The translations under genes and the position numbers were made by a program. Below, in pieces: positions 10,161-54,655 of a stretch of DNA of 64,000 nucleotides (position 1 is the first letter of the stretch; each line of letters begins with the position of its first letter). Source of the DNA: an uncultured Acidobacteriota bacterium (lineage in GTDB: Bacteria > Acidobacteriota > Thermoanaerobaculia > Multivoradales > UBA5704); contig CAVYRF010000001.1 in assembly GCA_963770895.1 (NCBI GenBank), positions 1,408,001-1,472,000 of the forward strand, written 5' to 3'. The notes under the pieces are model-generated. The model was not told the origin of the DNA, did not search any database, and saw only the letters and a list, made by a program, of their open reading frames with translations.

Positions 10161-11309
10161 GTGCCGGCGCGCCGCAAGGTGCTCATGGTGCAGGGTTCGC
10201 TGCAACCGCCGGGCGGCGGCAACGGGGTGGCCGCCTGGATCCTGCAGGCTCTCAGGGGGCGCTGCGAGCTGACGGTGGTGATGGTGGGCGCGGTCGATCT
10301 GCAAGCGGTCAATCGCCATTTCGGCACCACGCTGGCCGCGGACGACTTTACCGTGGTCACCGTGCGGTCCCTGGTCTGGCGGCTGCTCGACCGGCTGCCG
10401 CTGCGGCTCGCCCTGCTCAGGGGGCTGCTCCTGACGCGCCACGCGCGCCGGCTGGCTCCCGCTTTCGATGCAGTGGTGGGGGCGGCGGGCGAGACCGATC
10501 TGGGCGTGCCGGCCGTGCAGTACGTGCACTTCCCCTGGTCCTATCTGCCGCGCCCACCGCAGGACCTGGTCCACACGTACCACGTCGCCTGGCTGATCCG
10601 CCTCTACACCTGGGGCTGCGCCGTGCTCACCGGGTTCTCCTTCGCCCGCATGCGCCGCAATCTCACCCTGGCCAACTCGCGGTTTACCGCCCGGCATTTC
10701 GCCGCACGCCACGGCGTCGCAGCGGAGATCCTGCATCCGCCCACCATCGGCAGCTTCCCCAAGGTCGCCTGGAGCGACCGGGCCGACTCGTTCATCTGCA
10801 TCGGCCGCATCGCTCCCGAAAAGGAGCTGGAAAAGGTGATCGCCGTCCTCGCCGCGGTGCGGGAGCGCGGCCGGCCGGTCACCCTCACCCTGGCCGGCAT
10901 CGCCGACGATCCTGCCTACCACGCGCTCATCCGCGGGCTGGTGGCAGCGAACGCCTCATGGATGCGGCTGTGCGAGGACCTGCCGCGCGCCGAGCTCTGC
11001 CGGCTGGTCGCCGAGCACCGCTACGGCATCCACGGCATGCAGCGCGAGCACTTCGGCATGGCGGTCGCCGAGATGGTGCGCGCCGGCTGCATCGTCTTCG
11101 TGCCGCGCGAAGGCGGGCCGGCGGAGATCGTTGGCGAGGAGGATCTGCTGCTCTACGACGACGCGCCCGACGCCGTCGAAAAGATCCTGCGGGTCGCCGG
11201 CGACGCCGAGCTCCAGGCCGCCCTGTGCCGGCGTCTCGCCGTGCGCGGCCGCGAGCTCTCGACCGAGCATTTCGTCGCCCGCATCCGCGAGGTCTGCGGC
11301 GCCGCCTGA
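10161..11309 (+). CDS. GT4 glycosyltransferase, ALG11-like
   Basis: PGGG..AW, YVHFP, NSRFT, ILHPP, GRIAPEK, EHFGMAVAE motifs; start approximate. Confidence 0.85.
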   Translation: MPARRKVLMVQGSLQPPGGGNGVAAWILQALRGRCELTVVMVGAVDLQAVNRHFGTTLAADDFTVVTVRSLVWRLLDRLPLRLALLRGLLLTRHARRLAPAFDAVVGAAGETDLGVPAVQYVHFPWSYLPRPPQDLVHTYHVAWLIRLYTWGCAVLTGFSFARMRRNLTLANSRFTARHFAARHGVAAEILHPPTIGSFPKVAWSDRADSFICIGRIAPEKELEKVIAVLAAVRERGRPVTLTLAGIADDPAYHALIRGLVAANASWMRLCEDLPRAELCRLVAEHRYGIHGMQREHFGMAVAEMVRAGCIVFVPREGGPAEIVGEEDLLLYDDAPDAVEKILRVAGDAELQAALCRRLAVRGRELSTEHFVARIREVCGAA

Positions 11310-11312
11310 GCT

Positions 11313-12552
11313 TCAGGGGATGTCAGCCAGCTGGCGGATGCGGTGCTGGAAGCTTTCGACCGAAAGGTCCGGCAGGCCGGCGGCGAGGCTGCGGCGCAGG
11401 TCGGCGACCAGGCCGCATCGATCGGCCCCGTTGCCGCCATCGCTGCCGTCACCGTCGTGCTCGGCGGCGGCGAGCACGCGGCAGATCTTGTCGACGGCCT
11501 CTTGCACGGTGGCGAAGCGCAGGCGCGGGTCGCGCACGATGTCGCTCACGCCGCCGCGGTTGGGAGCGAAGACCAGGCAGCCGCCGGCGGCAAGCTCGGC
11601 GACCGCCATGCCGAACGGCTCGCGCGGGTTGGCGTGGATGGCGTAGCGATGGTGGGCGACCAGGGCGAGCAGGGCCGTACGCTCCAGATTGTGATGGACG
11701 GTGATCCAGGACGCATGGCGGGCAAACACCTCGCCGAGAGCGCGGGTGTGAGCCGGTGAGTCGTCCAGGGCGGCGATGGTCAGGCGCACGGCGTGGCCGC
11801 GGCGGCGCACCTCCTGCAGGATGGCGACGATGGTTTCGTAGCGCTTTTCCGGTGCCAGGCGGCCGATCGCCAGAAACGCGTCTGCGCGCTGTTCCCACGG
11901 CAGCCTTGGAAAGCTGCCGGCGAGCGGCGGATGGAGCACCTCCCGGCGGCGCGCCGGGGTGGCGGCGGGCGTAGACCTTGCCGGTCCAGCGCGAGTTGAC
12001 CAGGGTGACGTTGCGCCGCGTGCGGCGCATGGCAAAGCCGGTGACGGTGCCACAGGCCGCATGGTAGAGCGCGACGCGCAGCCAGCGCCCCCAGGGCCAG
12101 CGCGGGGCGGTGCGGTAGAAGCCGCGGTCGGCACTGGGGCGCGGCCACCAGGTCCAGGGAAAATGGACATATTGCAAGCCGGGACGGCGGCCCAGGTCGG
12201 CCTCGTCCTTGGCGGCGACCAGCAGGTCGTAGCCGCCGGCCAGGGCGCGCCCATGGCGGTAGAGCAGCAGCTGCTTGAGCATGATGAGAGGCGTGGGAGC
12301 GCTCGCCAGCAGGCGCCAGAGCCAGGAATCGGGCACGATCTCGCTCAGCTCGTGCGGCGCGAGCGCGGTGCCGAAGCTGCGGTTGATCGCCGCCAGGTCG
12401 GCCGGCTCGATCGACAGCAGGGCGAGATCGCAGCGCCCCGCCAGCGCCTGCAGCATCCAGGCGGCGACGGCGCTGCCGCCGCCCGGCGTGTGCAGCGACG
12501 GGTGGATGAACAGCACGCGGCGGCGGCGCGCACCTGCCGCGGCGCCGCTCAC
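11313..12552 (-). CDS. GT4 glycosyltransferase, ALG11-like paralog, with a 1-nt frameshift near 11943
   Basis: N-half (FIHPSL..GGG, YVHFP, NSRWT) in one frame, C-half (VLHPP, GRLAPEK, EPFGMAVAE) in another; shift falls in a G-run; GTG start overlaps the ABC stop codon. Confidence 0.8.
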
Positions 12553-14519
12553 CCGCGCGTTCCGGCGGGCGCGCCGGCCCCAGATCCGACTTCGGCCCCA
12601 GTCCCAGCCCCGGCGACGACGAGGGCGCGAAAGGTGGCGCTTCGCGCCAGCAGCTCGTCGTAAGGGCCGACCGCTTCGACGCGCCCTTCGCGCAGCAGCA
12701 CCAGGCGGTGGCAGCGCCGCACGGTGCTCAAGCGGTGCGCCACGATGACCAGGGTGCGGTCGCCGGATAGCGCCTCGATGGCGGCCGCCACCTCCTGTTC
12801 GGTGCGATTGTCGAGCGCCGCCGTGGCTTCGTCGAGCACCAGCACGCGCGGCTCGCCGTAGAGGGCGCGGGCGATGGCGACCCGCTGGCGCTCGCCGCCC
12901 GAAAGGCGCACGCCGCGCTCGCCGACGCGGGTGTCGAGACCGCCGGGCAGAGCGCTGACGAAGCGCTCGAGCTGCGCCAGGCGGATGGCGCGCCGCAGGC
13001 GGTCGGGGTCGATCTCGGCATCGGCGAGGCCGAAGGCGATGTTGCGGCGCAAGGTGTCGTCGGCGAGGTAGATGGCCTGCGGCACGTAGCCGATGCGGCG
13101 CTGCCAGGCGCGGCCGTCGTGCGCCAGGTCGACGCCGCCGGCCAGCACGCGGCCGGCGGTGGGGTGGAGCAGCGCCAGCAGGTGATCGACCAGGGTGCTC
13201 TTGCCGCTGCCGCTGGGGCCGACGATGCCGATCGCCTCGCCGGCCGGCAGGCGGAGGTTGATGTCGCAGAGCGCCGGGCGGTGCGCCGCCTCGTAGGTAA
13301 AGGTGACGTGCTCGAAGACCACCGCGTCGTGGCCGCTCGCCATCGTCGCCAGCGTTGCCATTGTCGCCATCGTCGCCAGCGGCTCCGCGGCCAGCGCGGC
13401 CGGTGGCGGCGGTGGCGACGCCGGGGCGGCAGCGGTCGGCGGCGCGGCCGGAGCGTCCGCGGCGGCCGGGGCGGCAGCGTCGCGGACGCGCGCCAGGTCG
13501 GCGGCGAGGCTGGCGGCGGCGGGGGCTTCGAAGCGCACGGTGTGCAGGTTGTAGACGACGCGGTGCGCCGAGGGCAGGATGCGGAAGCCGGCGTAGACCA
13601 GCAGCCCCAGCATCGGGATGCTGGCGCGCACGCTGCCGCCGGCGGCGGCGCCGGCGGGGGCGGTGACCGCGGCGGCGAAGACGATCGCCGCCATGCCGAG
13701 CACGAAGAGCGCCTCGACCAGCAGGCGCGGCACGGCCTCGGCGGTCACGCGCAGGGTCTGCAGGCGGGCGCGCGCGGTGCGCAGGCGCAGGAAGCGCTCG
13801 ACGAAGTGGCGCTCGCGCCCCAGAACCTTGACCTCCTTGACGCCGCCCAGGCCCTGGTTGAGCAGTCCGAGCTCGGCCAGCTCGATCTCGCGTGCCTCGC
13901 CGCCCCAGGTCTTGAACGCCTGCTGGGTAACGCGCAGGCCGCGCGCCAGGGCGAAGGTGACGACGATGCCGGCGGTGACCGCGGCGAGCGGCGCCTTCCA
14001 CAGCAGCACCGCGGCCATCGCCGCGATGTTCAGCGACTCAGAGAGCGCGACGGTGGCGGAAAGCAGCACCGAGCGGCAGGTGCGCTCCATCGATTCCTGG
14101 ATGGTATGGATCAGCTCGGCCGAATTGCGCCGCAGATGGAAGGCGTAGTCGGCGGCGAGGTAGCCGGCGAGCAGCTCGGCGGAGAGTGCCGCGATGGTGC
14201 CGTAGGCGAAGCGCGACTGCGCGTAGGCTTCGAGCGCCAGCAGGCTGTTCTTCAGCAGGTAGAAGGCGCCGACGAAGACGGCGAGGGCGGTGATCGCGGC
14301 ACGCTCGCCGGGGTGTCCGGAGAGCGCCGCGACGGAGCGTACCAGCGCCAGGTCGTGCGCCCGCGCCGGGTCGAGCAGCACGGTGACCAGCGACAGCACG
14401 GCGACGGCGCCGACCATCTCGAAGCTGGCGTTGAGCGTCGCCGTCGCCGCCAGGCCGGCCCACTGCCAGCGGGCGCGGCGCGGCAGGATGGCGAGGAGGT
14501 GATCCAGCGTCTCCTTCAT
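12549..14519 (-). CDS. ABC transporter permease/ATPase, PglK/MsbA-like putative lipid-linked glycan flippase
   Basis: TMD then GPSGSGKST, IGYVPQ, LSGGERQRVAIARA, LDEATAALD, IVAHRLST; located in a GT cluster. Confidence 0.88.
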   Translation of the reverse strand: MKETLDHLLAILPRRARWQWAGLAATATLNASFEMVGAVAVLSLVTVLLDPARAHDLALVRSVAALSGHPGERAAITALAVFVGAFYLLKNSLLALEAYAQSRFAYGTIAALSAELLAGYLAADYAFHLRRNSAELIHTIQESMERTCRSVLLSATVALSESLNIAAMAAVLLWKAPLAAVTAGIVVTFALARGLRVTQQAFKTWGGEAREIELAELGLLNQGLGGVKEVKVLGRERHFVERFLRLRTARARLQTLRVTAEAVPRLLVEALFVLGMAAIVFAAAVTAPAGAAAGGSVRASIPMLGLLVYAGFRILPSAHRVVYNLHTVRFEAPAAASLAADLARVRDAAAPAAADAPAAPPTAAAPASPPPPPAALAAEPLATMATMATLATMASGHDAVVFEHVTFTYEAAHRPALCDINLRLPAGEAIGIVGPSGSGKSTLVDHLLALLHPTAGRVLAGGVDLAHDGRAWQRRIGYVPQAIYLADDTLRRNIAFGLADAEIDPDRLRRAIRLAQLERFVSALPGGLDTRVGERGVRLSGGERQRVAIARALYGEPRVLVLDEATAALDNRTEQEVAAAIEALSGDRTLVIVAHRLSTVRRCHRLVLLREGRVEAVGPYDELLARSATFRALVVAGAGTGAEVGSGAGAPAGTRG

Positions 14520-15664
14520 TGCGTCATCGCGTCGTGGCGCGGCGTCGCCAGCAGGTCCTCGCACGCGGCCAGCACGCGCTCGGCGGCGTCCGGCACCACG
14601 CAGCGGCGCGCCCGCGCCGCCGCGGCGTCGAGCGCGGCCGGATCGGCAAGCAGGCCGGCGAGGCGGTCCGCCCACGCTTCCGGCTGCCAGCCGGCCTCGG
14701 CCGCCCACCAGCCCGCCGACGCGGCGGTAAAGGCCGCCGCGTTGTGCGTCTGGTGATCGTGTGCCGCGCCGGCGAGCGGCACGAACAACGACGGCACCGC
14801 GGCGGCGGCGAGCTCGAACACGGTGCCGGCGCCGGCGCAGGCGATGGCAAAGTCGGCCCAGGTGTAGGCGCCCGGCATGTCGTCCAGGTAGGGGTCGACG
14901 GCGGCGGCGATGCCGGCGGCGGCGTAGGCGGCGGCGATCGGCGCCGGCGGCGAGTCGCCGCACTGGTGGCGCACGGTGAGCGCTACGCCGCGGCGGGCGG
15001 CGCGGGCGAGCAGGTCGGGGGCGCGGCGGTTGAGGAACTCCGAGCCCAGCGAGCCGCCGGTGACCAGGATCTGGGCCGGCCGGTCGCCGCGCGTGCCGGC
15101 GCCACGGCGCTCCGCTCCCAGGCGCAGGATCTCGCGCCGCACCGGCGTGCCGGTGCGCTCGACGCGCGCCGCGGGCAGGCCGGCGGCGGCCGGTTCGAAA
15201 GCGGTGAAGACACGGTCCACCAGGCGGGCCAGCAGCCGGTTGGCGAGGCCGGCGGTGGCGTTCGATTCATGGATGGCGGTGCCCAGGCCCATGCAGCGCG
15301 CCGCGAGCAGCGGTGCCGCGGTGGCGAAGCCGCCGAAGCCCACCGCCAGGCCGGCCTGGCGGTGGGCCAGGATGCGGCGGGCGCGCCCGACCCCCCGCGC
15401 CGTGCACAGCACCGCCTTCAGCTGGGATCCAGGCGAGGCGCCGAGCAGGGGCAGGCTGTCGAGGGGTTCGATGGGGTGCCCCTCGGCGGCCACCAGGCGT
15501 GCCGCGAGCCCCTGCGCCGGCACGACGAAGAACACCGCGCCCTCGCCGCGCGAGCGCCGCCACAGGTCGGCGACGACCAGCGCCGGGTAGACGTGGCCGG
15601 CGGTGCCGCCGCAGGCGATGGCCAGGCGGTGACGTGGTGCGGTGGGCTGGCGGCCGCGCGGCAT
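14516..15664 (-). CDS. MurG-like GT28 GlcNAc transferase (outside a dcw cluster)
   Basis: GGTAGHVYP, GFGGF, HESNA..GLANR, GTPVR, GGSLGS, DHQTHNA. Confidence 0.88.
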   Translation of the reverse strand: MPRGRQPTAPRHRLAIACGGTAGHVYPALVVADLWRRSRGEGAVFFVVPAQGLAARLVAAEGHPIEPLDSLPLLGASPGSQLKAVLCTARGVGRARRILAHRQAGLAVGFGGFATAAPLLAARCMGLGTAIHESNATAGLANRLLARLVDRVFTAFEPAAAGLPAARVERTGTPVRREILRLGAERRGAGTRGDRPAQILVTGGSLGSEFLNRRAPDLLARAARRGVALTVRHQCGDSPPAPIAAAYAAAGIAAAVDPYLDDMPGAYTWADFAIACAGAGTVFELAAAAVPSLFVPLAGAAHDHQTHNAAAFTAASAGWWAAEAGWQPEAWADRLAGLLADPAALDAAAARARRCVVPDAAERVLAACEDLLATPRHDAMTQ

Positions 15665-15738
15665 CGTGCGGGGTGGCGGCGGTAGGCTCAGTGCAATGCT
15701 CCCGGCGGCGCGCGTCGCCTTCCACTACACTCGGGCGC

Positions 15739-17055
15739 ATGCTTGGCGCGCGCTGCCGCGTGGTGATCGTTGTCCTGGGCGAGCTCGGGTACAGTTCGCG
15801 TATGTTTTATCACGCCCTCGCCCTGGGCGCCGCGGGGGCGGCGGTCCACCTGGTGGGGCTGGCCGGGGCGGACCTGCCGGCGGCGGTGTGCCAGCATCCC
15901 AATATCAAAGTGCATGAGCTGGGCGCACCCCCGCGGCCGGCGCCGCGGCGTCGGGCGTGGTCGCCGGTGGCGGCCGGGGCGCGAGCGCTGCGCCTGGGCG
16001 CGGCGCTGCTGTGGTGCCTGCTGGCACGGGTCGAGCGGCCGGATTTCGTGCTGGTGCAGACGCCGCCCGCGCTGCCGGCCCTGCTGGTGGCGCTGGTCGC
16101 GGCACGCTGGCGGGCGGCGGCGCTGGTCGTCGATTGGCACAACTTCGGCGACCGCATGCTCGCTCTGCGGCTGGGCGGCGGCCATCCGCTGGTGCGGTTT
16201 CTCGGCGCCTGGGAGCGCCGGCTGGGGCGCCGCGCCGACGCGCACTTCTGCGTCTCGGCGGCGATGCGCGCCGAGCTGGCGGCGCGGTGCCGCATCGCCG
16301 CGAGGGTGCTGCGCGACCTGCCGGCGGCGCGCTTCGCGCCCACCCCCGAGCCGCGGCGCGCCGAGCTGCGGCGGCGCGTCGCCGGCGTGGCGGGCGCGGC
16401 GGATGCGACCGGCTGGGTGGGCGGCGAGGCGGCGCAGGGCCAGGCGGTGCAGGGCGAGGCGGCGACGATCGCGGTGACGGCCACCAGCTGGTCGGCGGAC
16501 GAGGACCTGGCGCTGTTGCTGGCCGCCGCGGTGCGCTGCGAGGAGGCGCTGGTGCGGCGCGGCGCGGCGCCGCTGGTCCTGCTGGTCACCGGCCGGGGCG
16601 GCGCGGTGCAGGCGGAGTTCGAGCGGCGGGCGGCGGCCCTGGAGCTGACGCGGGTGCGCATCGTGACCGCCTGGCTGGCGGCGGACGAGTATCCGGCGAT
16701 GCTCGGCGCCGCGGACCTCGGGGTGTCGCTCCACCGCTCGGCCTCGGGGTGCGACCTGCCGATGAAGATCGCCGACATGTTCGGCGCCGGACTGCCGGTG
16801 TGTGCGTTCGACTACGGGCCCTGCCTGGCGGAGCTGGTGCGCGACGGCGAAAATGGCCGGCTGTTTCGCACCGCCGACGAGCTTGCCGCGTGCCTGCTGG
16901 CGCTGGCCGGCGGCGGCGCCGACGCGGCGGCGGCGCGCGCGGCGCTGCGTCCTGGGGTGGTGGCGGCGGCGCGGCGGCGGTGGCACGAGGAGTGGGCGGC
17001 GGTGGCGGCGCCGCTCTTCGCGCCCAGCGCGGCGCGGCGGCGCGGCGGCGGATGA
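15739..17055 (+). CDS. ALG1-like beta-1,4-mannosyltransferase (GT33)
   Basis: VLGELGYSSRMFYHA, QTPP, VDWHNFG, TSWSADED, ADLGVSLHRSASGCDLPMKIADMFGAGLPVCA match the eukaryotic ALG1 signature motifs. Confidence 0.88.
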   Translation: MLGARCRVVIVVLGELGYSSRMFYHALALGAAGAAVHLVGLAGADLPAAVCQHPNIKVHELGAPPRPAPRRRAWSPVAAGARALRLGAALLWCLLARVERPDFVLVQTPPALPALLVALVAARWRAAALVVDWHNFGDRMLALRLGGGHPLVRFLGAWERRLGRRADAHFCVSAAMRAELAARCRIAARVLRDLPAARFAPTPEPRRAELRRRVAGVAGAADATGWVGGEAAQGQAVQGEAATIAVTATSWSADEDLALLLAAAVRCEEALVRRGAAPLVLLVTGRGGAVQAEFERRAAALELTRVRIVTAWLAADEYPAMLGAADLGVSLHRSASGCDLPMKIADMFGAGLPVCAFDYGPCLAELVRDGENGRLFRTADELAACLLALAGGGADAAAARAALRPGVVAAARRRWHEEWAAVAAPLFAPSAARRRGGG

Positions 17056-18308
17056 GCGAGCCCTTTCCGGCGCGGCGCAACGCCCTGCGCATCGCCGTGC
17101 TGCATCCCGAGCTGACGGTTGGCGGCGCCGAGCGGGTGATGGTCGATGCCGCGGCGGCGCTGCAGGCGGCGGGGCACGCGGTCACCCTGTTCACCGCCCG
17201 GCTCGACCGGCAGCGGGCGTTCACCGAGGCCGTTGACGGCACGCTGCGGGTGCGGGTGGTGGCCGGCGGCTTGCTGCCCGGAGCGGTGGCGCAACGGCTG
17301 CGGGTGCCGTGCGCGGTGGCGCGCAGCCTGTGGCTGGCGGCGGCGGCCGCCGCCGCGGCGCGACGCGGCGGCTGGGACGCGGTGCTCTGCGACCAGGTGG
17401 CGCAGGCGGTGCCGCTGGCGCGGCGCTGGTGCCGGGCGCCGGTGGTCTTCTACTGCCACTTTCCGGATCGGCTGCTGGCGCCTGCCGGCGGGCGATTCTA
17501 CGGCTGGTACCGCGGTCCGCTCGACCGGCTGGAGGCGGCCGGCATGGCATGCGCCGATCGCGTGCTGGTCAACAGCCGCTTCACGGCAGCGGCCTTCCGC
17601 GGTGCTTTTCCGCATGCCGCGGCGCCGGCGGTGGTATATCCGGGGGTCGAAATCGCCGCGTGCAATCCGGCGCTCGCCACTGTGGCACAGGGCGGCGGAG
17701 CGGGTGGGCCGGCGACCATTCTTTCGCTGGCGCGCTTCGCGCCCGCCAAGGGGGTCGAGCTCGCGATCGACGCCCTGGCGGAGCTGCGCACGGCGGCGCC
17801 GGCTGCATTCGCCGGCTGCCGGCTGGTCCTCGCCGGCAGCTGCGACGAGCGGGTGCGCGAGCAGCGCGAGACGCGCGCGGCGCTCGCGGCGCGCTGCACG
17901 GCGCTGGGGCTGGACGGCCGGGTGGAGCTGCGCCCTTCGGTGGACGAAGCGGAGCGCCGGGCGCTGCTCGCCGGCTGCCGCTTCCTGGTCTATACGCCTG
18001 CCGCCGAGCACTTCGGCATGGTGCCGATCGAGGCCATGGCCGCAGGGCGGCCGGTCGTCGCCATCGCCGGCGGCGGGCCGGCGGAAACCGTCGTGGACGG
18101 CGAGACGGGCTACCTCTGCCCACCGGCGCCGGCGGCCCTCGCCGCGGCTTTCGCCCGGCTCCTAGATCGGCCCGATCTCGCCGCGCGCCTGGGCGCCGCC
18201 GGCCGCCGCCATGTCGAGCACCATTTTTCGCGGGCCGCCTTCGGCGCCGCGATCGAGGCGGCGCTTCAGCAGGCGGTGCGCGGTCGCGTGCAGCGGTACA
18301 GGGCGTAG
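17052..18308 (+). CDS. ALG2-like alpha-1,3/1,6-mannosyltransferase (GT4)
   Basis: LHPELTVGGAERVMVDAA, CDQV, FYCHFPDRLL, YRGPLDRLE, ADRVLVNSRFT, YTPAAEHFGMVPIEAM; ATGA overlap with the ALG1-like gene. Confidence 0.85.
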   Translation: MSEPFPARRNALRIAVLHPELTVGGAERVMVDAAAALQAAGHAVTLFTARLDRQRAFTEAVDGTLRVRVVAGGLLPGAVAQRLRVPCAVARSLWLAAAAAAAARRGGWDAVLCDQVAQAVPLARRWCRAPVVFYCHFPDRLLAPAGGRFYGWYRGPLDRLEAAGMACADRVLVNSRFTAAAFRGAFPHAAAPAVVYPGVEIAACNPALATVAQGGGAGGPATILSLARFAPAKGVELAIDALAELRTAAPAAFAGCRLVLAGSCDERVREQRETRAALAARCTALGLDGRVELRPSVDEAERRALLAGCRFLVYTPAAEHFGMVPIEAMAAGRPVVAIAGGGPAETVVDGETGYLCPPAPAALAAAFARLLDRPDLAARLGAAGRRHVEHHFSRAAFGAAIEAALQQAVRGRVQRYRA

Positions 18309-20458
18309 CGCTCACCCAGGAGCGGCGGCGCGGTCGCGGCACAGCAAATGGCGGCCAGGCCGCTGGCCAACGGTGCGGCCCAGGGCAGGCTGGTATCGAC
18401 AGCGACCAGGTCCACCCCGCGGCCGGCGACCAGGGCGACGTCGCCGGCGAGCCGAGGGGGCGGCTGGCTGGTCGCGGGTCCTCCCACCAGGGCTTCCAGG
18501 CGGCGGCGCTCGTCGATACCGCGCGGGCCTTCGCCGGCGACGGCGCCGTAGTACTCGGGGCGCACGCCGATCAGGCGCGGATGGCGGCGGAAGGTGGTGA
18601 CCCATTCGGCAAGGTCGTAGGGAGCCAGCACCAGGTCGGTAGGGCGGCTGAGGGCGACCAGAGTAGCGGCCAGCTCGTGCTCCGGCGGCACCTTCGGCGC
18701 GGGCAGGCCGAGGCGCGTGCCGTCGCGCGGCGAAAGCGTCCACGTGCCGGGAAGGCAGGCGAAGATCACGCTGAAACCGGCGGCGGCGGCGGCTCCCGGC
18801 AGCCAGCCGGGCCAGCCGGGCGATCGCGGCCACGCGGCGCGCGGTACCGGCGCTTGCGGGGCGGCGGCGCGGCGGCGCAGGGTGGCGAGGCGTTGGACAC
18901 AGAGGCCGATCAGCAGCGGGAACGGCACCGCCCAGAAGATGCGCCACAGGAAGCGCTGGACGAAGCGGCCGGCCAGCGCCGGCGTCCAGGGGTTCATCAC
19001 CGCCAGCAGCAAGGCGAGGACGTAGGCGATGGCCAAGCGGCGCCGCCGGCCCGGCGCGGCCACGAGCGGTGCCAGCAGCAGTGCGAAGAGAGCGAAGCGC
19101 GCGCGCGGGCCGGTGCCGAGCACGGCAGACAGGCCCGAGGTGGAGAGCGCGGGAAGCTGCGTCACGTCGGCCCACGAGATCGCCAGCCGTTGCGCCAGCG
19201 GCATGCGCGCCACCGTCGCCGCGGCGAAGCCGGCGACCGGCAGCGCCGCGGCGCCCGCCCAGAGCACGAGCGCCGGCCGGCGCTCGGCCGCGCTCCAGGC
19301 GGCCACCAGCAGCAGTGCCGTGGTGGGCACGGCGACGACGGCGCTGCCGGATATGCCCACCGCGGCCACCTGCACCAGGGCAAGCAGCATCCAGGTGCGC
19401 GCGCCCGGCGTGCGGCAGAAGCCCGCCGCGTAGGAAAGGGCGGCGGGCACGGCCACCACCACCGCCACCGCCTTGCCTTGGAACATGCGGACAAACGCAA
19501 AGTTGCCATACGCCTGGTGCACGTCGCCCCAGGCAAGCAGCGCCAACACCACCGCCGCGGCGCCGGCCACGGCGCCCGGCCGGCCGCCCAGGCGGCGCAG
19601 CGCCGACCAGTGGGCGAGCACGCAGAGCACCGCAAAGAGCGCCGGGAAGACCAGGTAGTAGAGCGCCTTGGGATCCACGCCGCCGAGCCGCGACAGCGTC
19701 GCGACCAGCGGTTCATAGCTCTTCAGCCGGTACCAGGTTTCAAAAGGCGGCAGACCGCGCTCGCCATAGAGCCCGTCATACGCCAGCAGCGGCTCCGCCG
19801 GGCGATCGAGCGCCGTAACCACCAGGTTGAGATAGAAGCTGTCGTCCGCATCCGGCCGGTGCGCCGCAAGGGTGACCCCGGCAGCCAGCACGCACAGGGC
19901 AAAAAGCGCAACGAGCGCCGCGCCGCCGCCTCTGTCGTGCGGCGCCGCCGACGTCAGTGTTGCCGGCAGCGCCGACACTGCCGTCGGGGCGGCGGCCGGC
20001 GCGCGAGCCCCATCTGCCGCCGCCGCGTTGTCCGGCCCGTCGCGGCGCGCCCGCACGCCGGCCGCGACGAGCACACCGACCGCGAGCACCCAATAGACCG
20101 GATATGCGCCCTTGCCGGCGGCGCCGGCGACCACCATCACCAACCCGGACGCCGCCGCGGCAACCGCCAGCGCCCGCGGCTGCAGCGCCTCCGCCTCCAA
20201 CTTCGCCACCGCCCCCTGCGGCGCCGCCGCCCCGCTACAAGCAGAGTTCGGCGCCGGCAGCCAGCGCAGTACGGCCGCGGCGGCCAGCAACGGCACCCAA
20301 GCGAGCGAAACCAGGGTGTCGAAGCTAGCGCCGAGCGCCTGCAACGTCCAACACCACGAGGTCCAGACGCCGAACAGCACCACGCTGCCATCGAGCAGCC
20401 GCACCGCCGCCGCTTCCCAGCGAAAAGCGCAGCTTTCCCCGGCCATCGGAGCCAGCAT
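18266..20458 (-). CDS. Polytopic membrane protein, GT-C-like (DUF6077-like)
   Basis: About 12 or more hydrophobic segments, DADDSFY acidic motif in an early loop, RMFQGK motif, soluble C-terminal domain. Confidence 0.65.
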   Translation of the reverse strand: MLAPMAGESCAFRWEAAAVRLLDGSVVLFGVWTSWCWTLQALGASFDTLVSLAWVPLLAAAAVLRWLPAPNSACSGAAAPQGAVAKLEAEALQPRALAVAAAASGLVMVVAGAAGKGAYPVYWVLAVGVLVAAGVRARRDGPDNAAAADGARAPAAAPTAVSALPATLTSAAPHDRGGGAALVALFALCVLAAGVTLAAHRPDADDSFYLNLVVTALDRPAEPLLAYDGLYGERGLPPFETWYRLKSYEPLVATLSRLGGVDPKALYYLVFPALFAVLCVLAHWSALRRLGGRPGAVAGAAAVVLALLAWGDVHQAYGNFAFVRMFQGKAVAVVVAVPAALSYAAGFCRTPGARTWMLLALVQVAAVGISGSAVVAVPTTALLLVAAWSAAERRPALVLWAGAAALPVAGFAAATVARMPLAQRLAISWADVTQLPALSTSGLSAVLGTGPRARFALFALLLAPLVAAPGRRRRLAIAYVLALLLAVMNPWTPALAGRFVQRFLWRIFWAVPFPLLIGLCVQRLATLRRRAAAPQAPVPRAAWPRSPGWPGWLPGAAAAAGFSVIFACLPGTWTLSPRDGTRLGLPAPKVPPEHELAATLVALSRPTDLVLAPYDLAEWVTTFRRHPRLIGVRPEYYGAVAGEGPRGIDERRRLEALVGGPATSQPPPRLAGDVALVAGRGVDLVAVDTSLPWAAPLASGLAAICCAATAPPLLGERYALYRCTRPRTAC

Positions 20459-20683: not shown

Positions 20684-20758
20684 GCCGACGTAGCTCAGCG
20701 GTAGAGCAGCTGATTCGTAATCAGCAGGTCATCGGTTCAATCCCGATCGTCGGCTCCA
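20684..20758 (+). tRNA. tRNA-Thr(CGT)
   Basis: Cloverleaf GCCGACG..CGTCGGC-T-CCA; anticodon arm GCTGA-TTCGTAA-TCAGC; GGTTCAATCC T-loop. Confidence 0.97.
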
Positions 20759-29829: not shown

Positions 29830-31038
29830 TCAGGTCCTCATGGGCAAGACTTTGGCGGACGGCTCGGGCTCGCGGTCGAGCGCCGCGCGCAACCACCCGC
29901 TCACGCGGTCAGCCGCCGCGACCAGGGAATGGCTCCGGTGCGTGTAGCGGTCATGCGCATCCGTTCCAGGCGCATGGCCCATCAAGAGCTTGCGGACTTC
30001 CCGGTCCACGCCCAGCTCCGCCGCCGCAGTTCCGAAGGCATGGCGCGTGGCGTCGTATAGTCGGATACCAGCGGGAACCTCGGCGCGGGCCGTGACGCGC
30101 TCCCATAGGAGGCGCAGACTCGGGATGTGCTTGCCACTGGCGGGCGGACGAACAAAAACCCAAGGGCCAGTCCTGGCGAGCCCTGCGAGCACTTCCACCG
30201 CCGCCGCTCCCAGGACCACCACCCGTGGGCCGGTCTTCGCTGCCTTGAGCCCCCAGGTGCGGTCCGCCACGTTGATGTGCTCCCATCGGGCGGCGATCAC
30301 CTCAGCCGGCCGCGCACCGGTCAGCAGGCAAAACTTGAACGCAGCGACCGCTGCCGCGTCGTCTTCCTCTTCGAGCGCCGCGCCGATGCGCCCAAGCTCT
30401 TCGCGGCTGAGACCGCGCCCCCGTGGGGGCTCCGCAAAGCGATCGTGACGGGCGGCGGGGTTGCTGCGGTCCTGCGGGAACCACTGCCACCGCTGCGCCA
30501 GCGACCAGGCTTTCGAGGCAAGCGAGAGCAGCCGGTTCGCCATGAAGGGGTGAGCCGCGCCCACGTCCCGGTGCAGCTTGTCGAGATCCTGCCAGGTCAC
30601 GTCCGCAACCGGCCGCGCCTTGAGCGCCGGCACCAGGTAGAGGCGGAAGAGCATCTCAGCGTTTCGGCGTGAGCTTGCAGACTTGCTAGCGTAGTGCTCT
30701 GCGAGGACGCGATTGGCAAGGTCGGCAACGGTCGGCGCCGTGTCCGTCATGTGGCGCCGCGCCCGCCGGTCCTTGAGAGGGTCTTCCCCTCGGCCGACCG
30801 CCGCCTTGAGCTGGCGGGCCTCTTCGCGCGCGGTGTCTACGGTCCACTCGCCAAAGCGCCCGATCGTGTAGCGGCGCTCCCGCCCGCCGGCCCCTCGGTA
30901 GTTCAGCACGAAGGACTTCACGCCACCGCGAGAGACCGCGATCCCGAAGCCCTTCACGTCGGTATCCCAGGCGACCTCGGCGCGGTCGGGGCCGGGCTTC
31001 AAGCTGTCGGCCAGTTTTTTGGTGAGCTTCCGAGCCAT
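29830..31038 (-). CDS. Tyrosine integrase with N-terminal arm-binding domain
   Basis: WDTDVKGFG..RRYTIG arm domain; LTGAR, KTG, YDATRH, LMGH, RY catalytic set. Confidence 0.93.
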   Translation of the reverse strand: MARKLTKKLADSLKPGPDRAEVAWDTDVKGFGIAVSRGGVKSFVLNYRGAGGRERRYTIGRFGEWTVDTAREEARQLKAAVGRGEDPLKDRRARRHMTDTAPTVADLANRVLAEHYASKSASSRRNAEMLFRLYLVPALKARPVADVTWQDLDKLHRDVGAAHPFMANRLLSLASKAWSLAQRWQWFPQDRSNPAARHDRFAEPPRGRGLSREELGRIGAALEEEDDAAAVAAFKFCLLTGARPAEVIAARWEHINVADRTWGLKAAKTGPRVVVLGAAAVEVLAGLARTGPWVFVRPPASGKHIPSLRLLWERVTARAEVPAGIRLYDATRHAFGTAAAELGVDREVRKLLMGHAPGTDAHDRYTHRSHSLVAAADRVSGWLRAALDREPEPSAKVLPMRT

Positions 31039-33649: not shown

Positions 33650-35409
33650 TCAGCGGGTCGAGGAGCAGGCGCACGTAGCGCTCACCGCGATGCCGGCGGC
33701 GTTGGCCGTGCAAGCGTTGCCGCAGGTCTTGCCATCGCAGCCGCATACTGGGCTGAAGACGAGCGCGCACGCCTCCGGGATCGGCCGGCAGAGGCCGCCC
33801 GCAGCGCTCAGGCCGCAGCCGGCAGCCAGCAGGTAGTCGCAGAACTGCCCGGCGGCACAAGGTTCGGCATCGGGGACGCCACAAACCTGCATGGGTACGG
33901 CGGGAGTGCACTTGCCGGCCCCCGCGGCGCGATAGATGCGAGCAAAATCGGCGGCGGCAAGAGCGCGATCGAAAACCTCCAGCTCGTCGAGCTTCCCCGC
34001 GTAGTGCTGCGGCGCGCCGAGCTGCGTCAACGCCGGCACGAATCCGATCAGGAACGTCCCGAGGAAGGGCGTGGGGCCGCTCGCGGCGCCGGTGACGGCG
34101 CTGGCGCCGGCAAGCCCATCCAGGTTCTGGGGCGCGAAAGCCTGCGCTATCCGGCCGTCAACATAGAGATGGACGACGACGTTGGCGCCCCCCGGGTCGT
34201 GGGTCAAGGTCGCGCCGACCAGGTGCCAGCGATCGTCGGCGAGCTGACTGCACGCCGGCACGCTACAGGTACCGCCCGCGCCGAGAACCGCAAAGCGCAG
34301 CGCGCCGCCGCTCAGGCTGAGCTCCCAACCCACCGGCACATCGTCCGGTGCCGCGAGCTTCCCGGCGAGCGGCGCGTCGAGCTGGCCGGTGCGGATCCAG
34401 GCATCGATCGTGTAGCCCGCTCCGTTCACCAGATTCGGGTCCAGCATCGCATCGGCGGCCACGCTGGCAGCGCCGGACGCGCCGTCGAAGGCGAGGGCGC
34501 GGCCGACCCTGCCGCTGGTATGACCGACGCCCGAAAGCGTCGCGTCGTGCGGTCCCGAGAAGTGTCCCGCGATGTCGGCGGCAAGGGTACCGGTCGTCTC
34601 GTCGAAGGGCCACCAGGCTACGGGGTGCGCCGGCAGCGGCGCGCATTTGCACTTGCCGGCGGGCCGGACCTGGCGATGTCGCGGACCTCCGGTGCGCTGA
34701 GCCGCCGGCTGAAGATCTCGACCTCGTCGAGGACGCCTGCCCACGAAGGCGACGGGCCTTGCGCCTCGGCGCCGAGCAGCAAGGGCGCGGCGTTGGACAG
34801 CGAGCCATTGTGGGCATTGGCCGTCAGCGTGTCCTGCGCCGCGCCGTCGACAAAGAAAGTGATCGTCAAGGGCTGGCGGGTTACCGTCACCGCAACGTGG
34901 TGGAAGGCGCCGTCGGCGGCAACATGGGCGAGCTTCGAAACGTAGTTATCATGGGTGCCGTCGGCGACTTGCAGCCCCAAGGCGCCCCCATAAAGAAAGA
35001 GCTCGTAGCCGGTGACGAGCGCTCCGGCGAAGGACCGCTTGTCCACGATCGACCGCACGCCCTGGATTTGGGCCGGTAACACCCAGGCGTCGAGCGTGAA
35101 GTCGCCGGTGCCGACGTTCAAGACGGCGCTGTCGGGGACCTGCACGTAGTCGCTGGCACCGTCGAAGGACAGCGCGCCGGCGACGGCGCCCGGCACCGGC
35201 TGCGGGCTGCCGACGAAAAACCCGTCGTTGGCGGCCACCAGGTCCCCCGAAACCGTGCCCGCCGTCTCGTCGAGCGGCCACCAGGCGACCAGGCCCTGCG
35301 GCGGGCCGACACAGGCCTTCCCCGGCGGCGCCACGGCAGGGGCAGCGGCGGCCGCGAGCCACCCTGGTGTTGCCAGCCAGCCGGCGAGCAGAGCCGAAGC
35401 CACGAGCAT
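33650..35409 (-). CDS. Secreted protein with two LamG-like domains and a C-terminal Kazal domain; 1-nt frameshift near 34660
   Basis: Two AWWP.DE..G / T.DAW / LDE.E.F.R.L units; PVCGCDGKT.GNAC; shift lies in a C-run. Confidence 0.8.
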
Positions 35410-35432
35410 GATCGTCTCCTTGGCGCGCCGTT

Positions 35433-36195
35433 TCAGAACGCCTGGGTACCGACGAAATACCCAAAACCGCACAGCCCGGCGAAACCGCCGGCCTGCTGCG
35501 CCACCGCGACAAGGTTGTAACCGCTGCCGCCGGTGCCCTGCACCTGCAATACCTTGCCGTTGCCCAGGGTGACGAAGGTGTAGGTCCCGACCTCGGCAAG
35601 GTCCGCTACCGGCGAGGCGAAGTTGGTCGAGCCGACCAGGTAGTTGTACCCCGCCACGGTGGCGAAGCCGCCGCCTGTCTCCGTCACGGCGAACATGTTG
35701 TGGCCGGTGCCGCCGGTGCCGGTGACCTTGAGCAGCCTGCCGCTCTCCATCCCCAAGAGCGTCTGACCCGCCGCGAACGCCAGCGAGGTCACCGGCGAGC
35801 TGAACTTCTGGTCACCGACATAGTAGGGATAGGGCGATACGCCCTGGATGCTGCCCGCGGACTCGAGGACGGCAAACATGTTATGGCCGGTGCCGCCGGT
35901 GCCAGCGACCTTGAGCAGCTTGCCGTCGCTCAGCCCGACCAGCGTCACTCCCATCCCGAAGCTCAGCTGGACCACCGCCTCGTTGAACTTCTGGTCGCCG
36001 AGGTAGTGGGCGTAGCCCGCGACGCTGCTGAACCCGCCGCTGGTCTCGACGACCGCGAACATATTGTGGCCCGTGCCTCCGCTGCCGTTCTCCTTCAGCA
36101 TCTTGCCGTCGACAAGGCCGATGATCGTCTGGCCCGGGACCGCCAGGACGCTGCTCACGGCAGCCCCGAACTTCTGATCGCCGACATAGTAGGGC
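35433..36195 (-). pseudogene. 5'-truncated ~61-aa-repeat (beta-propeller-like) protein
   Basis: Four repeats Y.GDQKF...GK.LKV.GTGGTGHNMFAV; no credible start codon before the CRISPR flank. Confidence 0.6.
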
Positions 36196-36362
36196 CGGCC
36201 GTCAGGCCGGGCAAGCCTCCGGTGGGAGCTGCCGCGGTGGCCGGTGAGTCGGTCGCCGCCACCGGCGACCTGGGCGGCACCGCGGAGCTCGCCGCCGCCT
36301 ACGTCATGTACACCTTGGGCTCGACCGGTCGGGTGCACCGGTAGTCGCAACCCGAACTCATT

Positions 36363-37661
36363 GTCGCAATCCCACCGCACGCATCAGGTCTTCTCCGACA
36401 ATATCCAGGCCCGACGATCAAGGAGGCGCTGCAAAAGTCGCAATCCCACCGCACGCATCAGGTCTTCTCCGACGGTCGGGCGCGTGTCGAAGAACAAGGC
36501 CGAAGACATGTCGCAATCCCACCGCACGCATCAGGTCTTCTCCGACTCAGAGCGAAATCAAGGCGCAAGAAGTGAACGGCTCCTTGGGTCGCAATCCCAC
36601 CGCACGCATCAGGTCTTCTCCGACGTTGTCGACAAGCTCAAGGTGGAAGACGTCCAGAAGTCGCAATCCCACCGCACGCATCAGGTCTTCTCCGACGCAG
36701 GCGGCCGGCCAGACCGATCCCGCCGAACTCCAGAAGAAAGTCGCAATCCCACCGCACGCATCAGGTCTTCTCCGACCATGTCGCAGCACTCCTGGGAAAT
36801 TGTGCGGGTAAGTCGCAATCCCACCGCACGCATCAGGTCTTCTCCGACGTCGGCCGGTCACTTCTTCGAGCCGGTGAAAATCGGTCGCAATCCCACCGCA
36901 CGCATCAGGTCTTCTCCGACGACCTCGCGGTCGATTCGGTCCGAGAGGCACAGAAAGTCGCAATCCCACCGCACGCATCAGGTCTTCTCCGACCGGGACC
37001 GGGGCTGATCTCTATGCGCAGTGCTCTGCGTCGCAATCCCACCGCACGCATCAGGTCTTCTCCGACCAAATCATGCCGGATGGCAAGTTGCGGCTGGTGG
37101 TAGTCGCAATCCCACCGCACGCATCAGGTCTTCTCCGACGCACGCCGGCACACAGGTGGCCAAGCAGATGGAAAAGAGTCGCAATCCCACCGCACGCATC
37201 AGGTCTTCTCCGACCTGGCCATCTTCGTGATGGCGATCAAGGACGAGAAGTCGCAATCCCACCGCACGCATCAGGTCTTCTCCGACGTTCTCTTAGTATC
37301 GGGCTCGGTGCGCCAGTTACGGAGTCGCAATCCCACCGCACGCATCAGGTCTTCTCCGACGCGGCGGTTCGCGGTGGCGGTATGACGCAAGACGAAACAG
37401 TCGCAATCCCACCGCACGCATCAGGTCTTCTCCGACCTTGAAGCGCTGAAAGGCGCCCGCCGGCGTCTCGTCGGCGTCGCAATCCCACCGCACGCATCAG
37501 GTCTTCTCCGACATGACTGCTGCCGGAGCCATCGTCGCTGCCGCGATCATGGGTCGCAATCCCACCGCACGCATCAGGTCTTCTCCGACAGGGAGAGGCC
37601 GTATTGGTCGCATAGAGAGTCGAGGTCGCAATCCCACCGCACGCATCAGGTCTTCTCCGAC
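36363..37661 (-). CRISPR. CRISPR array 1: 18 repeats, 17 spacers
   Basis: 37-bp repeat GTCGCAATCCCACCGCACGCATCAGGTCTTCTCCGAC on +; leader on the right, next to cas2. Confidence 0.98.
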
Positions 37662-37880
37662 TGCTGGATTTATAACTCCTTTCCCCTCAATGAGTTGAGG
37701 TCTATTCGGCCGTTACCTGGCAAATGACGTCCCCGCGACGCTCCGGTCTGACTCGGTTTCAATCATGCTTTGGAGGCGGAAACCTCTGAAACGACGCGGC
37801 TTGCAGCCGCGGCCGTTACCTGGGTGCCGATTTGGCGAAAATGGGTTGGCACGGTTGATGCCATTCCATAAGCGCCATGA
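37662..37880 (-). promoter_or_regulatory. CRISPR leader 1
   Basis: Homologous to 41269-41490 and 54437-54655. Confidence 0.8.
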
Positions 37881-39147: not shown

Positions 39148-40089
39148 CTATCCCTTCTCTCGCAGCTCGAGATAGGTCAGCAGGTCGAGCGGCGGCGGCA
39201 GCGTCGGTGCGCTCGGTTCGGGCTTCGCCGGATCGAACGGTAGATAGATGGCGTCCTTCAGGAAGGTTGCGCCCAGGAACTTGAAACCTTGCTCGAACGA
39301 GCTGGTATGCGTCTTCTCCTGGTTGAGGCGCAGCTCGAGCTGCGCCAGGAGGTATTCGGTCAGCTCGAGCGCCTCGCCGGCCTCCGCGGCGCTTTTGCAC
39401 AGGATGAGCAGGTTGTCGGCGTAGCGCACCACGGTCTTGCCGAACAGCGCGAGGTTCTCGTCGAGCTCGTCGAGGAAGAGGTTGGCGAGCATCGGCGAGA
39501 CGACCGGCCCCTGCGCGATGCCTCGCTGCGGCCGGTACACCCGCTCGCCGTCGTAGATCTCCGCCCTGATCCAGCCCTCGAAGAGCGCGAAAAGTGCAGG
39601 TTCGAGGCGCAGCCTGCGCAGGCGGTCGAGCAGGCGATCGTGTGCAATCTGGCCGAAGAAGTCCTCAATGTCGGCGTCCACGAGGAAGCGGTAGCCCGCC
39701 TGGCGCAGCTCGTCCACGCGGCGGATCGCGCTCTTGACCGACCGACCGGGGCGAAAGGCGTAGCTGCACTGTTCGAGCTCGGCCTCGAAGCGGTCCTTGC
39801 TCACCAGGTAGGCCGCGGTTTGGGCGACGCGATCGCGCACCGTGGGCACCGCGAGGTAGCGGATGCCGTGCCGCGGCTTGGGGATCGGAAAGCGGAGCAG
39901 AGGGTAGGGGTGGTAGCGCCGGCTGCGCAGGCGGTCCTCGAGGTGGTCCAGCTCCTGCTCCAGCCGCTCGGCGAAGCGGCCGAGCGTGGTGCCGTCGGCG
40001 CCGCGGCAGCCGCTGTTGCCGCGCACCCGCTCGAAGGCGGCACGCAGCGTCCGCCTCGCGCAGAGATCCTCGATCGTAGGTTCGAGCAC
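39148..40089 (-). CDS. Stand-alone CRISPR-associated reverse transcriptase (YADN variant)
   Basis: G.DG, IPK, VPTVRDRVAQ, SYAFRPGRS, DADIEDFF, QG..VSP.LANL.LD, RYADN, LNQEKT, FKFLG; ends 5 nt before cas1. Confidence 0.92.
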   Translation of the reverse strand: MLEPTIEDLCARRTLRAAFERVRGNSGCRGADGTTLGRFAERLEQELDHLEDRLRSRRYHPYPLLRFPIPKPRHGIRYLAVPTVRDRVAQTAAYLVSKDRFEAELEQCSYAFRPGRSVKSAIRRVDELRQAGYRFLVDADIEDFFGQIAHDRLLDRLRRLRLEPALFALFEGWIRAEIYDGERVYRPQRGIAQGPVVSPMLANLFLDELDENLALFGKTVVRYADNLLILCKSAAEAGEALELTEYLLAQLELRLNQEKTHTSSFEQGFKFLGATFLKDAIYLPFDPAKPEPSAPTLPPPLDLLTYLELREKG

Positions 40090-40413: not shown

Positions 40414-41268
40414 GTCGCAGCCCCCCACCGCACGCGTCAGGTCTTCTCCGACCGCAAGAACACGGCCTCATCGTGGCTGCCGACACGATTTGTCGCAATC
40501 CCACCGCACGCCTCAGGCCTTCTCCGACCAGTACCCCATCAACTGCAACTGCACCTTGGAAGAGTCGCAGTCCCACCGCACGCGTCAGGTCTTCTTCGAC
40601 TCATTGTCCCTCAGAACAAGCTGGCGATCGTCATCAAGAGGTCGCAATCCCACCTCACGCCTCAGGTCTTCTCCGACGAGGTCGGCGTCGAAAGGGTAGC
40701 CCGGGGAATGCAGAAGTCGCAATCCCACCTCACGCCTCAGGTCTTCTCCGACTCAACAACTACTGGGAGGACGATGCCGATCCGAGCTGGGTCGCAATCC
40801 CACCTCACGCCTCAGGTCTTCTCCGACGTGGCGGGTCGCTACGGTTCCAACCTGGCGAACATCGTCGCAATCCCACCTCACGCCTCAGGTCTTCTCCGAC
40901 GTGTTGGTCAACGTCGACGACGGCCGCCTGCGTCAGAGTCGCAATCCCACCTCACGCCTCAGGTCTTCTCCGACTTGGCTGGTGGCGGCCAGGCCGCAGG
41001 TGGGGAAAAGGTCGCAATCCCACCTCACGCCTCAGGTCTTCTCCGACCTTCCACAAGGGCTTCGTGGAAATTCATAGATAGATGGAGTCGCAATCCCACC
41101 TCACGCCTCAGGTCTTCTCCGACCTTGATCCAAATCTCAAAGGACCCGCCCATGTGGATGTCGCAATCCCACCTCACGCCTCAGGTCTTCTCCGACCGAC
41201 CACGATATCTACACTATCGTCCTCGCTGAGAGTCGCAATCCCACCTCACGCCTCAGGTCTTCTCCGAC
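40414..41268 (-). CRISPR. CRISPR array 2: 12 repeats, 11 spacers
   Basis: Variant GTCGCAATCCCACCTCACGCCTCAGGTCTTCTCCGAC; the three left (trailer) repeats are degenerate. Confidence 0.97.
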
Positions 41269-41510
41269 TCCTGGGTTTGTAACCTCTTTTCCTTCAATAA
41301 ATTAAGGATCACTCGGCCGTTACCTGGCAGAGTTCGCCCCGCAATGCTTCGGCCGGGCTCGGGGTTTAACCCGGCCTGGAAGATGGAAATCACTGAAACA
41401 AAGTAGCTTGCAGCCATGGCCGTTACCTGGGTGCCAATTTGGCGAAATCGGGTTGGCACGATTGCTGCCGTTCCCATAGATGCCATGATCAGGAGACATA
41501 AACCTCCGGG
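41269..41510 (-). promoter_or_regulatory. CRISPR leader 2 with a short cas2 3' remnant
   Basis: Similar to leader 1; ACATAAACCTCCGG as at the cas2 end. Confidence 0.7.
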
Positions 41511-54436: not shown

Positions 54437-54655
54437 TGCTGGATTTTTAACCTCCTTTCCATCAATGAGTTAAGGGCCATCCCGCCGTTACCTGGCAAAT
54501 GGCGCCCCCGCAACTCTCCGGTCGGGCGCGGTTTCAACTCCGCCTTGGAGGCGGAATTCTCTGAAACGACGCGGCTTGCAGCCGCGGCCGTTACCTGGGT
54601 GCCGATTTGGCGCAAACGGGTTGGCACGATTGATGCCATTCCATAAGCGTCATGA
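54437..54655 (-). promoter_or_regulatory. CRISPR leader 3
   Basis: Close homolog of leader 1. Confidence 0.8.

Follow-up and report, generated by a model that had tools for sequence, protein, structure and literature searches.

The region between 10.1 and 20.5 kb of the DNA analysed here appears to be one instance of a bacterial gene cluster that is conserved and has spread horizontally; the cluster would build a eukaryote-type core glycan on a polyprenyl-diphosphate, export it and, in this genome, deliver it to another end acceptor. We give this reading an even chance. The whole stretch analysed, referred to as the window, consists of 64,000 nucleotides from an uncultured Acidobacteriota bacterium (Thermoanaerobaculia; Multivoradales; UBA5704) and corresponds to positions 1,408,001 to 1,472,000 of contig CAVYRF010000001.1 in assembly GCA_963770895.1.

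Because the DNA is about 71% G+C, genes were called from frame plots of third-position GC and then translated. Seven genes were found in the region, designated D, E/F, G, H, I, J and K:

10179-11309 (+): D, cluster-specific GT4 glycosyltransferase by prediction; start uncertain between 10128 and 10179; the collection copy, P0247, is 393 aa long
11313-12516 (-): E/F, paralogue of D in two reading frames, with a frameshift near 11936-11959
12549-14519 (-): G, ABC half-transporter of the exporter type (Pfam/NCBIfam), candidate flippase
14516-15664 (-): H, second MurG-family (GT28) gene by its GT28 domains, candidate N-acetylglucosamine (GlcNAc) transferase for chitobiosyl-diphosphate (PP)-lipid
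15665-15738: divergent intergenic region of 74 bp, read directly, between the H-G-E/F and I-J transcription units
15739-17055 (+): I, ALG1-like beta-1,4-mannosyltransferase homologue, by named relatives and motifs
17052-18308 (+): J, ALG2-like alpha-1,3/1,6-mannosyltransferase homologue, by named relatives and the EX7E motif
18266-20458 (-): K, DUF6077 polytopic membrane protein (PF19554)

The gene layout given in an earlier note on this DNA proved to be real, and all the motifs quoted there were found in the translations. The translational coupling it proposed for the ALG1/ALG2 pair was read directly as an ATGA stop/start overlap at I/J, and an overlap of the same kind was read at H/G. K is convergent with J, and their 3' ends overlap by 43 bp. 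The 74-bp spacer between H and I contained no sigma-70-like match. A promoter scan gave no promoter-like sites, and five terminator-like sites versus 3.1 expected. A look-up of expression listed no RNA holder of this region.

The translation of I carries TSWSADED and LHRSASGCDLPMKIADMFG. In a comparison with the bacterial ALG1-like family, its C-terminal motifs TSWxADED and LHRSASGxDLPMKIADMFGAGLPVCA were intact. In the list of 120 relatives of I (out of 175 at E<=1e-5), all JGI names read 'beta-1,4-mannosyltransferase', and the NCBI names pointed to Polyangia and Binatia metagenome-assembled genomes (MAGs).

The translation of J carries HPELTVGGAER, FYCHFPDRLL and YTPAAEHFGMVPIEAM. In the list of 120 of its 456 relatives, all JGI names read 'alpha-1,3/alpha-1,6-mannosyltransferase'. 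Its EX7E motif, EHFGMVPIE, was intact; its Val is shared by 103 of 117 relatives, and the two Glu do not vary. The G-loop and EX7E signatures of eukaryotic and active bacterial ALG2 were found to hold family-wide among the relatives of J. The named relatives of both I and J were proteins of Polyangia, Binatia, Deltaproteobacteria and Acidobacteria MAGs, at 45-58% identity. Named relatives and family motifs supported the assignment, at the level of sequence, of I to the bacterial ALG1 homologue family and of J to the bacterial ALG2 homologue family, in line with the original ALG1 and ALG2 claims.

Activities of this kind have been described in a preprint by Xu et al. (2025; 10.1101/2025.10.15.682550). 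Its main text gives 204 bacterial ALG1 homologues, with BLAST E values against human ALG1 of 6e-22 to 1e-104, and lists none from archaea as reliable. Yeast alg1 was rescued by ALG1 homologues from Gammaproteobacteria, Polyangia and Binatia MAGs, which made Man-GlcNAc2-PP-lipid (Man, mannose). Transfer from GDP-Man to GlcNAc2-PP-lipid was demonstrated with three bacterial homologues but not with two others. ALG2 homologues from Gammaproteobacteria and Polyangia MAGs rescued yeast alg2 and made Man3GlcNAc2-PP-lipid. Since homologues from other bacteria have been shown to be active, the ALG1 and ALG2 activities are not new, and the earlier statement that no characterized bacterial pathway like this was known is outdated for the two enzymes. 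The words operon, gene cluster, neighbour and synteny do not occur in the main text of the preprint, which does not address the role of the enzymes in bacteria. No published description of the cluster context of ALG1/ALG2 was found in a literature search that was short on subscription journals.

H contains the N- and C-terminal GT28 domains (PF03033, 69.9 bits; PF04101, 96.5 bits). It aligned over its full length with Pseudomonas MurG 3s2u and kept GGTAGH, IHESNA and DHQTHNA; GGTAGH aligned with GGTGGH of 3s2u, and the histidine of GGxGGH is present. On the murG model (TIGR01133) H scored 226.7 bits, under the cut-off of 250.25. The housekeeping murG, on contig C2 of the same genome, scored 255.7 bits, lies about 3 kb from a PF00953 (MraY-family) match and is 33% identical to H. 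Exactly two MurG genes were present in all five other carrier genomes tested. In a tree of 16 MurG sequences, a single branch (support 89/96) split 10 cluster-linked copies from 6 housekeeping copies. The gene that had been described as a MurG-like GT28 is thus, by its domains, the tree and the two MurG genes per carrier, a dedicated second MurG copy. This fits the prediction that H is a UDP-GlcNAc transferase whose lipid-linked acceptor is a different one.

G has the architecture of an exporter, with a transmembrane domain (TMD) and a nucleotide-binding domain (NBD). It scored 105.1 bits on ABC_tran and 26.9 bits on ABC_membrane, just below the cut-off of 28. On the NCBIfam models for MsbA and PglK it reached 265.1 and 236.6 bits, against cut-offs of 602 and 1000. 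Of the proposed 'PglK-like ABC exporter', the exporter stands, and it recurs in the cluster elsewhere; its scores on both the PglK and the MsbA model are far below the cut-offs.

D matched Pfam Glycos_transf_1 at 41.3 bits. Its family adjoins ALG1-like genes in loci L012, L017 and L018 and in genome G026, and D is predicted to represent a cluster-specific GT4 family. E/F matched D in tblastn at 47% identity over D residues 1-178 and, in another frame, at 42% over residues 165-372; the switch of frame, at about 11936-11959, lies inside a C/G-rich run. The two genes had been put down as 'two ALG11-like GT4s'. None of 35 members of the D family matched ALG11_N (PF15924) at E<=1, D itself gave no match at E<=0.01, and the JGI names among the listed relatives of D (120 of 1281) were generic. 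The ALG11 label was therefore unsupported; one of the two genes, moreover, is frameshifted.

To sum up the fate of the earlier interpretation, the ALG1, ALG2, MurG-type and exporter assignments were retained, the ALG11 label and the role of K as the transferase proved wrong or unsupported, and the novelty of the two mannosyltransferases is outdated.

A scan of one genome per species gave 13 loci with a relative of I, in Binatia, Myxococcota, Acidobacteriota, Pseudomonadota and unclassified MAGs. By tblastn, these loci contained a MurG-like gene in 9 cases (usually divergent from the ALG1-like gene), an ALG2-like gene in 5, a full-length ABC exporter of the G type in 5, a D-type GT4 in 3, a WecA-like gene in 5 and an STT3-like gene in 10. 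The three loci in which no STT3 was found were 3.9, 5.0 and 13.8 kb long. The recurrence of the same gene families together in other phyla, which the earlier note had proposed as a check of synteny across MAGs, is more than chance.

Pfam confirmed STT3 in all eight candidates tested, that of G026 included. WWDYG (WWDxG), the hallmark motif of STT3 oligosaccharyltransferases (OSTs), was present in six of these eight. Two cluster-linked OSTs also passed the cut-off of 450 of the NCBIfam model archaeo_STT3 (TIGR04154), with 494.6 and 521.7 bits. The cluster is a putative conserved bacterial set linked to OSTs of the STT3/AglB type.

Gene fusions were found among the relatives as well. Two metagenomic relatives of I, P0014 (761 aa) and P0058 (763 aa), consist of an N-terminal WecA-family domain and a C-terminal ALG1-like domain. 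In G026, which belongs to the same order as the window genome, a 984-aa frame (locus L032, contig C11, 7406-10357) joins a WecA-family phosphoglycosyl transferase domain to a complete ABC exporter (TMD + NBD) and lies directly upstream of an ALG1-like gene, a D-type GT4 and an AglB-type OST. Here the pathway's first enzyme and its flippase would be a single polypeptide. Long open reading frames (ORFs) joining WecA-like and STT3 sequences at L021 and L022 look like adjacent genes read through, and were rejected as fusions.

The link to STT3 was also seen at the level of whole genomes. Of 121 sampled genomes of the Binatia class, 18 had ALG1-like genes. STT3 was found in 16 of these 18, and in 9 of the 103 genomes that had no ALG1-like gene. 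In 12 of the 16, STT3 lay within 8 kb of the ALG1-like gene on one contig. ALG2-like genes were found in at least nine genomes, eight of them ALG1 carriers; the count is a lower bound, with 14 candidates scored per genome. These counts are given without a statistic because related genomes are not independent. An ALG2-like gene is present in each of the two ALG1-like carriers in which STT3 gave no match, G341 and G444, which may be additional OST-less cases or incomplete assemblies.

ALG1-like genes were absent from all nine genomes of the same genus and turned up in 5 of the 301 genomes sampled from the phylum. This patchy distribution points to horizontal acquisition. A comparison of the flanks with those of G003, of the same genus, found only a topoisomerase IB gene in common, so that no insertion boundaries were drawn.

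The observation that no initiating GlcNAc-1-phosphate transferase lies in the window was correct: it contains no WecA-like gene. The only WecA-family gene of the genome other than MraY is on contig C2, among epimerase, acyltransferase and GT4 genes, and is 39-42% identical to cluster-linked WecA domains. A GDP-mannose pyrophosphorylase-like gene is also present in the genome. The assembly itself (G000) consists of contigs of 2.24 Mb, 5.83 Mb and 88 kb at 70.7-70.9% G+C; the glycan cluster is on the 2.24-Mb contig, and the housekeeping murG/mraY and the WecA-like gene are on the 5.83-Mb contig.

For this organism we infer every step of the pathway, ALG1 and ALG2 activity having been shown for homologues. 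Assembly would take place at the cytoplasmic face. The WecA-type enzyme of contig C2 would make GlcNAc-PP-lipid, and H, the dedicated MurG paralogue, would add the second GlcNAc. I, the ALG1 homologue, would then add a beta-1,4-mannose, and J, the ALG2 homologue, an alpha-1,3- and an alpha-1,6-mannose. D would add a further sugar, as E/F would formerly have done. The lipid-linked glycan would then be flipped by the ABC exporter G. In most other carriers, the adjacent STT3/AglB would move the glycan to asparagines of proteins. Since no STT3 was detectable here, the flipped glycan would have to reach another acceptor through another transferase. Candidates for this role would be one of four Wzy_C-type ligases, one of 25 PMT_2-type GT-C enzymes, all membrane enzymes encoded in the genome, or the DUF6077 protein K. 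The 25 PMT_2-type GT-C matches are an unusually large set.

K matched PF19554 (DUF6077) at 79.3 bits against a cut-off of 27, its only Pfam match. The family has 1527 representatives at E<=1e-3 and a single copy in this genome; a literature search for DUF6077 found no description. A crude hydropathy count gave about 13 hydrophobic helices, followed by a soluble C-terminal part. The near-invariant residues of the family, R201, D203, D205 and D206, fall in HRPDADD of K, where the RPDxDD motif opens a 70-residue acidic loop that is predicted to face outward. GT-C enzymes typically carry an acidic motif in a loop. The description of K as a polytopic membrane protein with a DD motif was thus accurate.

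Several observations weigh against a working cluster that serves another end acceptor. No match to STT3 (PF02516) was obtained in the genome, at 94.95% completeness; tblastn with three cluster-linked STT3s gave none either, and no ORF of at least 400 aa had WWDxG at a position plausible for a polytopic OST. The other carriers checked in the phylum had STT3 in 6 of 6 cases, like the 16 of 18 in the Binatia class; the background of STT3 in the phylum sample was 29 of 301, with the unpublished genome G063 counted. In I, the N-terminal motif VLGDLGRSPRMQYHA deviates at four near-invariant positions. Its residues there are E, Y, S and F, in place of the D, R, P and Q of 97, 95, 101 and 79 of 118 relatives; these odd residues occur in 5, 3, 1 and 2 of the 118 sequences, the S being unique. 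In the ALG1 tree, a long stem carries the window protein together with P0007, a relative 78% identical to it, apart from the copy of the same order. The G-loop of J reads T-V-G-G-A-E-R and departs from the G-I-G-G-A-E-R signature in having Thr at the first Gly, a position occupied by Gly in 105 of 117 relatives and by Thr in 2. The preprint (10.1101/2025.10.15.682550) gives G-I-G-G-A-E-R and E-H-F-G-I-V-P-L-E as the signatures of eukaryotic ALG2, and reports that changing this first Gly to Ala kills the activity of human and of a bacterial ALG2. The frameshifted sequence of E/F was found again in a contig of another run, X2: 175 nt spanning 11813-11987, with no differences and no gaps. It follows that this assembly is not alone in having the extra base, although X2 may itself be the source sample. 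Finally, the sugar specificities of H, D and G are ones that we infer from gene context. The window copy shows signs of relaxed or shifted constraint.

The lack of STT3, the E/F frameshift, the Thr in the G-loop of J, the four rare residues of I and the long stem would all suit a decaying remnant, acquired horizontally, whose OST and WecA-like genes were lost or never present, which makes no product, and in which I, J and E/F gather disabling changes. On the other hand, the six genes other than E/F are full-length open frames with a strong coding pattern of third-position GC, and I keeps its C-terminal catalytic motifs, as J does its EX7E motif. Of the four odd residues of I, three are common to P0007 and are thus older than this genome. 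In addition, a relative about 90% identical in DNA (sequencing run X3) keeps the gene order from D to G and from G to K. We regard the remnant as unlikely, though well within reason. The idea that K is a GT-C-type replacement for STT3, which would take or modify the flipped glycan on the periplasmic side and pass it to a protein or envelope acceptor, draws on its place next to the cluster, kept with J in the same relative, on its helices, R-x-D-x-D-D motif at the start of the acidic loop and soluble C-terminal domain, and on the recurrence of DUF6077 in glycan loci, with large GT2 genes in 26 and Wzt-type ABC ATPases in 13 of 90 other loci. None of these 90 loci, however, had ALG1-like, ALG2-like, MurG-like, D-type GT4, STT3 or WecA-like genes, DUF6077 was absent from all 14 other ALG1-like loci, and K, being convergent, is not in the operon of J. 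The K profile gave no match to solved structures, and hhalign probabilities were 1.9% against the cluster-linked STT3s and 0.15% and 0.11% against unassigned proteins of 645 aa (G026) and 678 aa (L012) in other ALG loci. With no STT3 Pfam match and no WWDxG, K was rejected by sequence as an OST, and the earlier proposal of K as the end transferase found no support. We consider such a replacement quite improbable. K is a glycan-related membrane protein by prediction, and its link to the ALG cluster is local and unproven.

An ordinary exopolysaccharide or lipopolysaccharide GT4 cluster, with an ALG1/ALG2 likeness that is generic GT-B similarity, would account for the generic GT4 families that Pfam and NCBIfam gave for D, I and J, for the generic names of the D relatives, and for the sequence search of solved structures, which returned generic GT4s for J and nothing for I. 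It sits badly with the specific JGI names of the I and J relatives, the ALG2 signatures kept across the family, the fusion of ALG1-like to WecA-type domains, the tight linkage to STT3/AglB genes and the biochemistry described for homologues by Xu et al.; we hold it to be very improbable indeed. The preferred reading remains that of a horizontally spread cluster with another end acceptor. On this reading, the window cluster is an OST-less copy of an undescribed bacterial ALG-type N-glycosylation cluster, and one that is possibly eroding or rewired. There is little likelihood, in our estimate, of the fullest version, in which native bacterial N-glycosylation with a trimannosyl-chitobiose core, the counterpart and possible donor lineage of ALG1/ALG2 of the endoplasmic reticulum, has had its STT3 replaced here by the DUF6077 protein. 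If this were true, K would be a new class of lipid-linked-glycan transferase.

Beyond the cluster, a tRNA-Thr gene (CGT) at 20684-20758 is followed by a stretch of low GC (57% versus 71%) that encodes a DUF3631 protein and a protein with a VasI-like domain and ends at a tyrosine integrase (29830-31038, -). The segment 20684-31038 looks like a mobile element that has integrated at the tRNA gene, and it lies immediately next to the glycan cluster. Two adjacent genes (33650-35472), located after the integrase and before the first CRISPR array, encode concanavalin-A-like lectin/glucanase (Laminin_G_3) proteins. Three CRISPR arrays, at about 36360-37690, 40489-41293 and 52454-54437, have a common 37-nt repeat and flank a reverse transcriptase gene (39148-40089) and type III cas genes, among them those for Cas6 (41568-42566) and Cas10 (49924-51729). 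The segment 36360-54437 is probably a reverse transcriptase-associated type III CRISPR system.

The origin of the mannose-adding steps in eukaryotic N-glycosylation is an open question; ALG1 could not be placed by Lombard (2016). The neighbourhood described here, with its MurG paralogue, WecA fusions, ABC exporter and linkage to STT3/AglB, offers a physiological context for the bacterial enzymes, namely bacterial N-glycosylation with a eukaryote-like core, and this context spans Binatia, Myxococcota, Acidobacteriota and others. The bacterial carriers could supply compact operons for eukaryote-type core glycans. The window is the odd case, and is useful for following the fate of a pathway whose last step has been lost or replaced.

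In the eukaryotic dolichol pathway the order of the implied chemistry is the same: an N-acetylhexosamine-1-phosphate transferase, a GT28 enzyme, ALG1-type, ALG2-type and GT4 transferases, a flippase and, in other carriers of the cluster, an STT3-type OST. It differs in that ALG13/14 is a split pair, whereas the GT28 of the cluster is a single MurG-like polypeptide. By Pfam, the further GT4 of the cluster is distinct from ALG11; an ABC exporter is the candidate flippase, undecaprenol is the presumed carrier, and the window's own genome is without STT3.

The Campylobacter pgl system (PglC/A/J/H/I, PglK, PglB) follows a like logic, with cytoplasmic assembly on polyprenyl-PP and flipping by an ABC transporter, and an STT3-family OST is found in other carriers of the cluster. 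The glycosyltransferases of the cluster, however, are of the ALG1/ALG2 type and not of the Pgl type. The score of G on the PglK model (236.6 bits) is far below 1000, and it was the cut-off of the archaeal-type model TIGR04154, not that of PglB, that the two cluster-linked OSTs passed.

The archaeal Agl system, with Agl24 (chitobiose synthesis) and AglB, resembles the cluster in that a fused GT28-family enzyme with the GGxGGH histidine is the candidate maker of chitobiosyl-PP-lipid; in other bacteria, moreover, the cluster has a link to AglB-type OSTs. It differs in that H aligned over its full length with bacterial MurG and grouped with the cluster-linked bacterial MurG paralogues. Archaea are also without reliable ALG1 homologues, according to the main text of Xu et al. 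(10.1101/2025.10.15.682550).

The closest comparison is with the enzymes described by Xu et al., as given in that text. The window proteins differ from them in the Thr at the first G-loop glycine of J and in the divergent N-terminal motif of I. On the other hand, the EX7E motif of J has the Val of their ALG2 proteins, its G-loop agrees for the most part with theirs, and I and J are placed in the same homologue families as GaALG1/2, PoALG1/2 and BiALG1.

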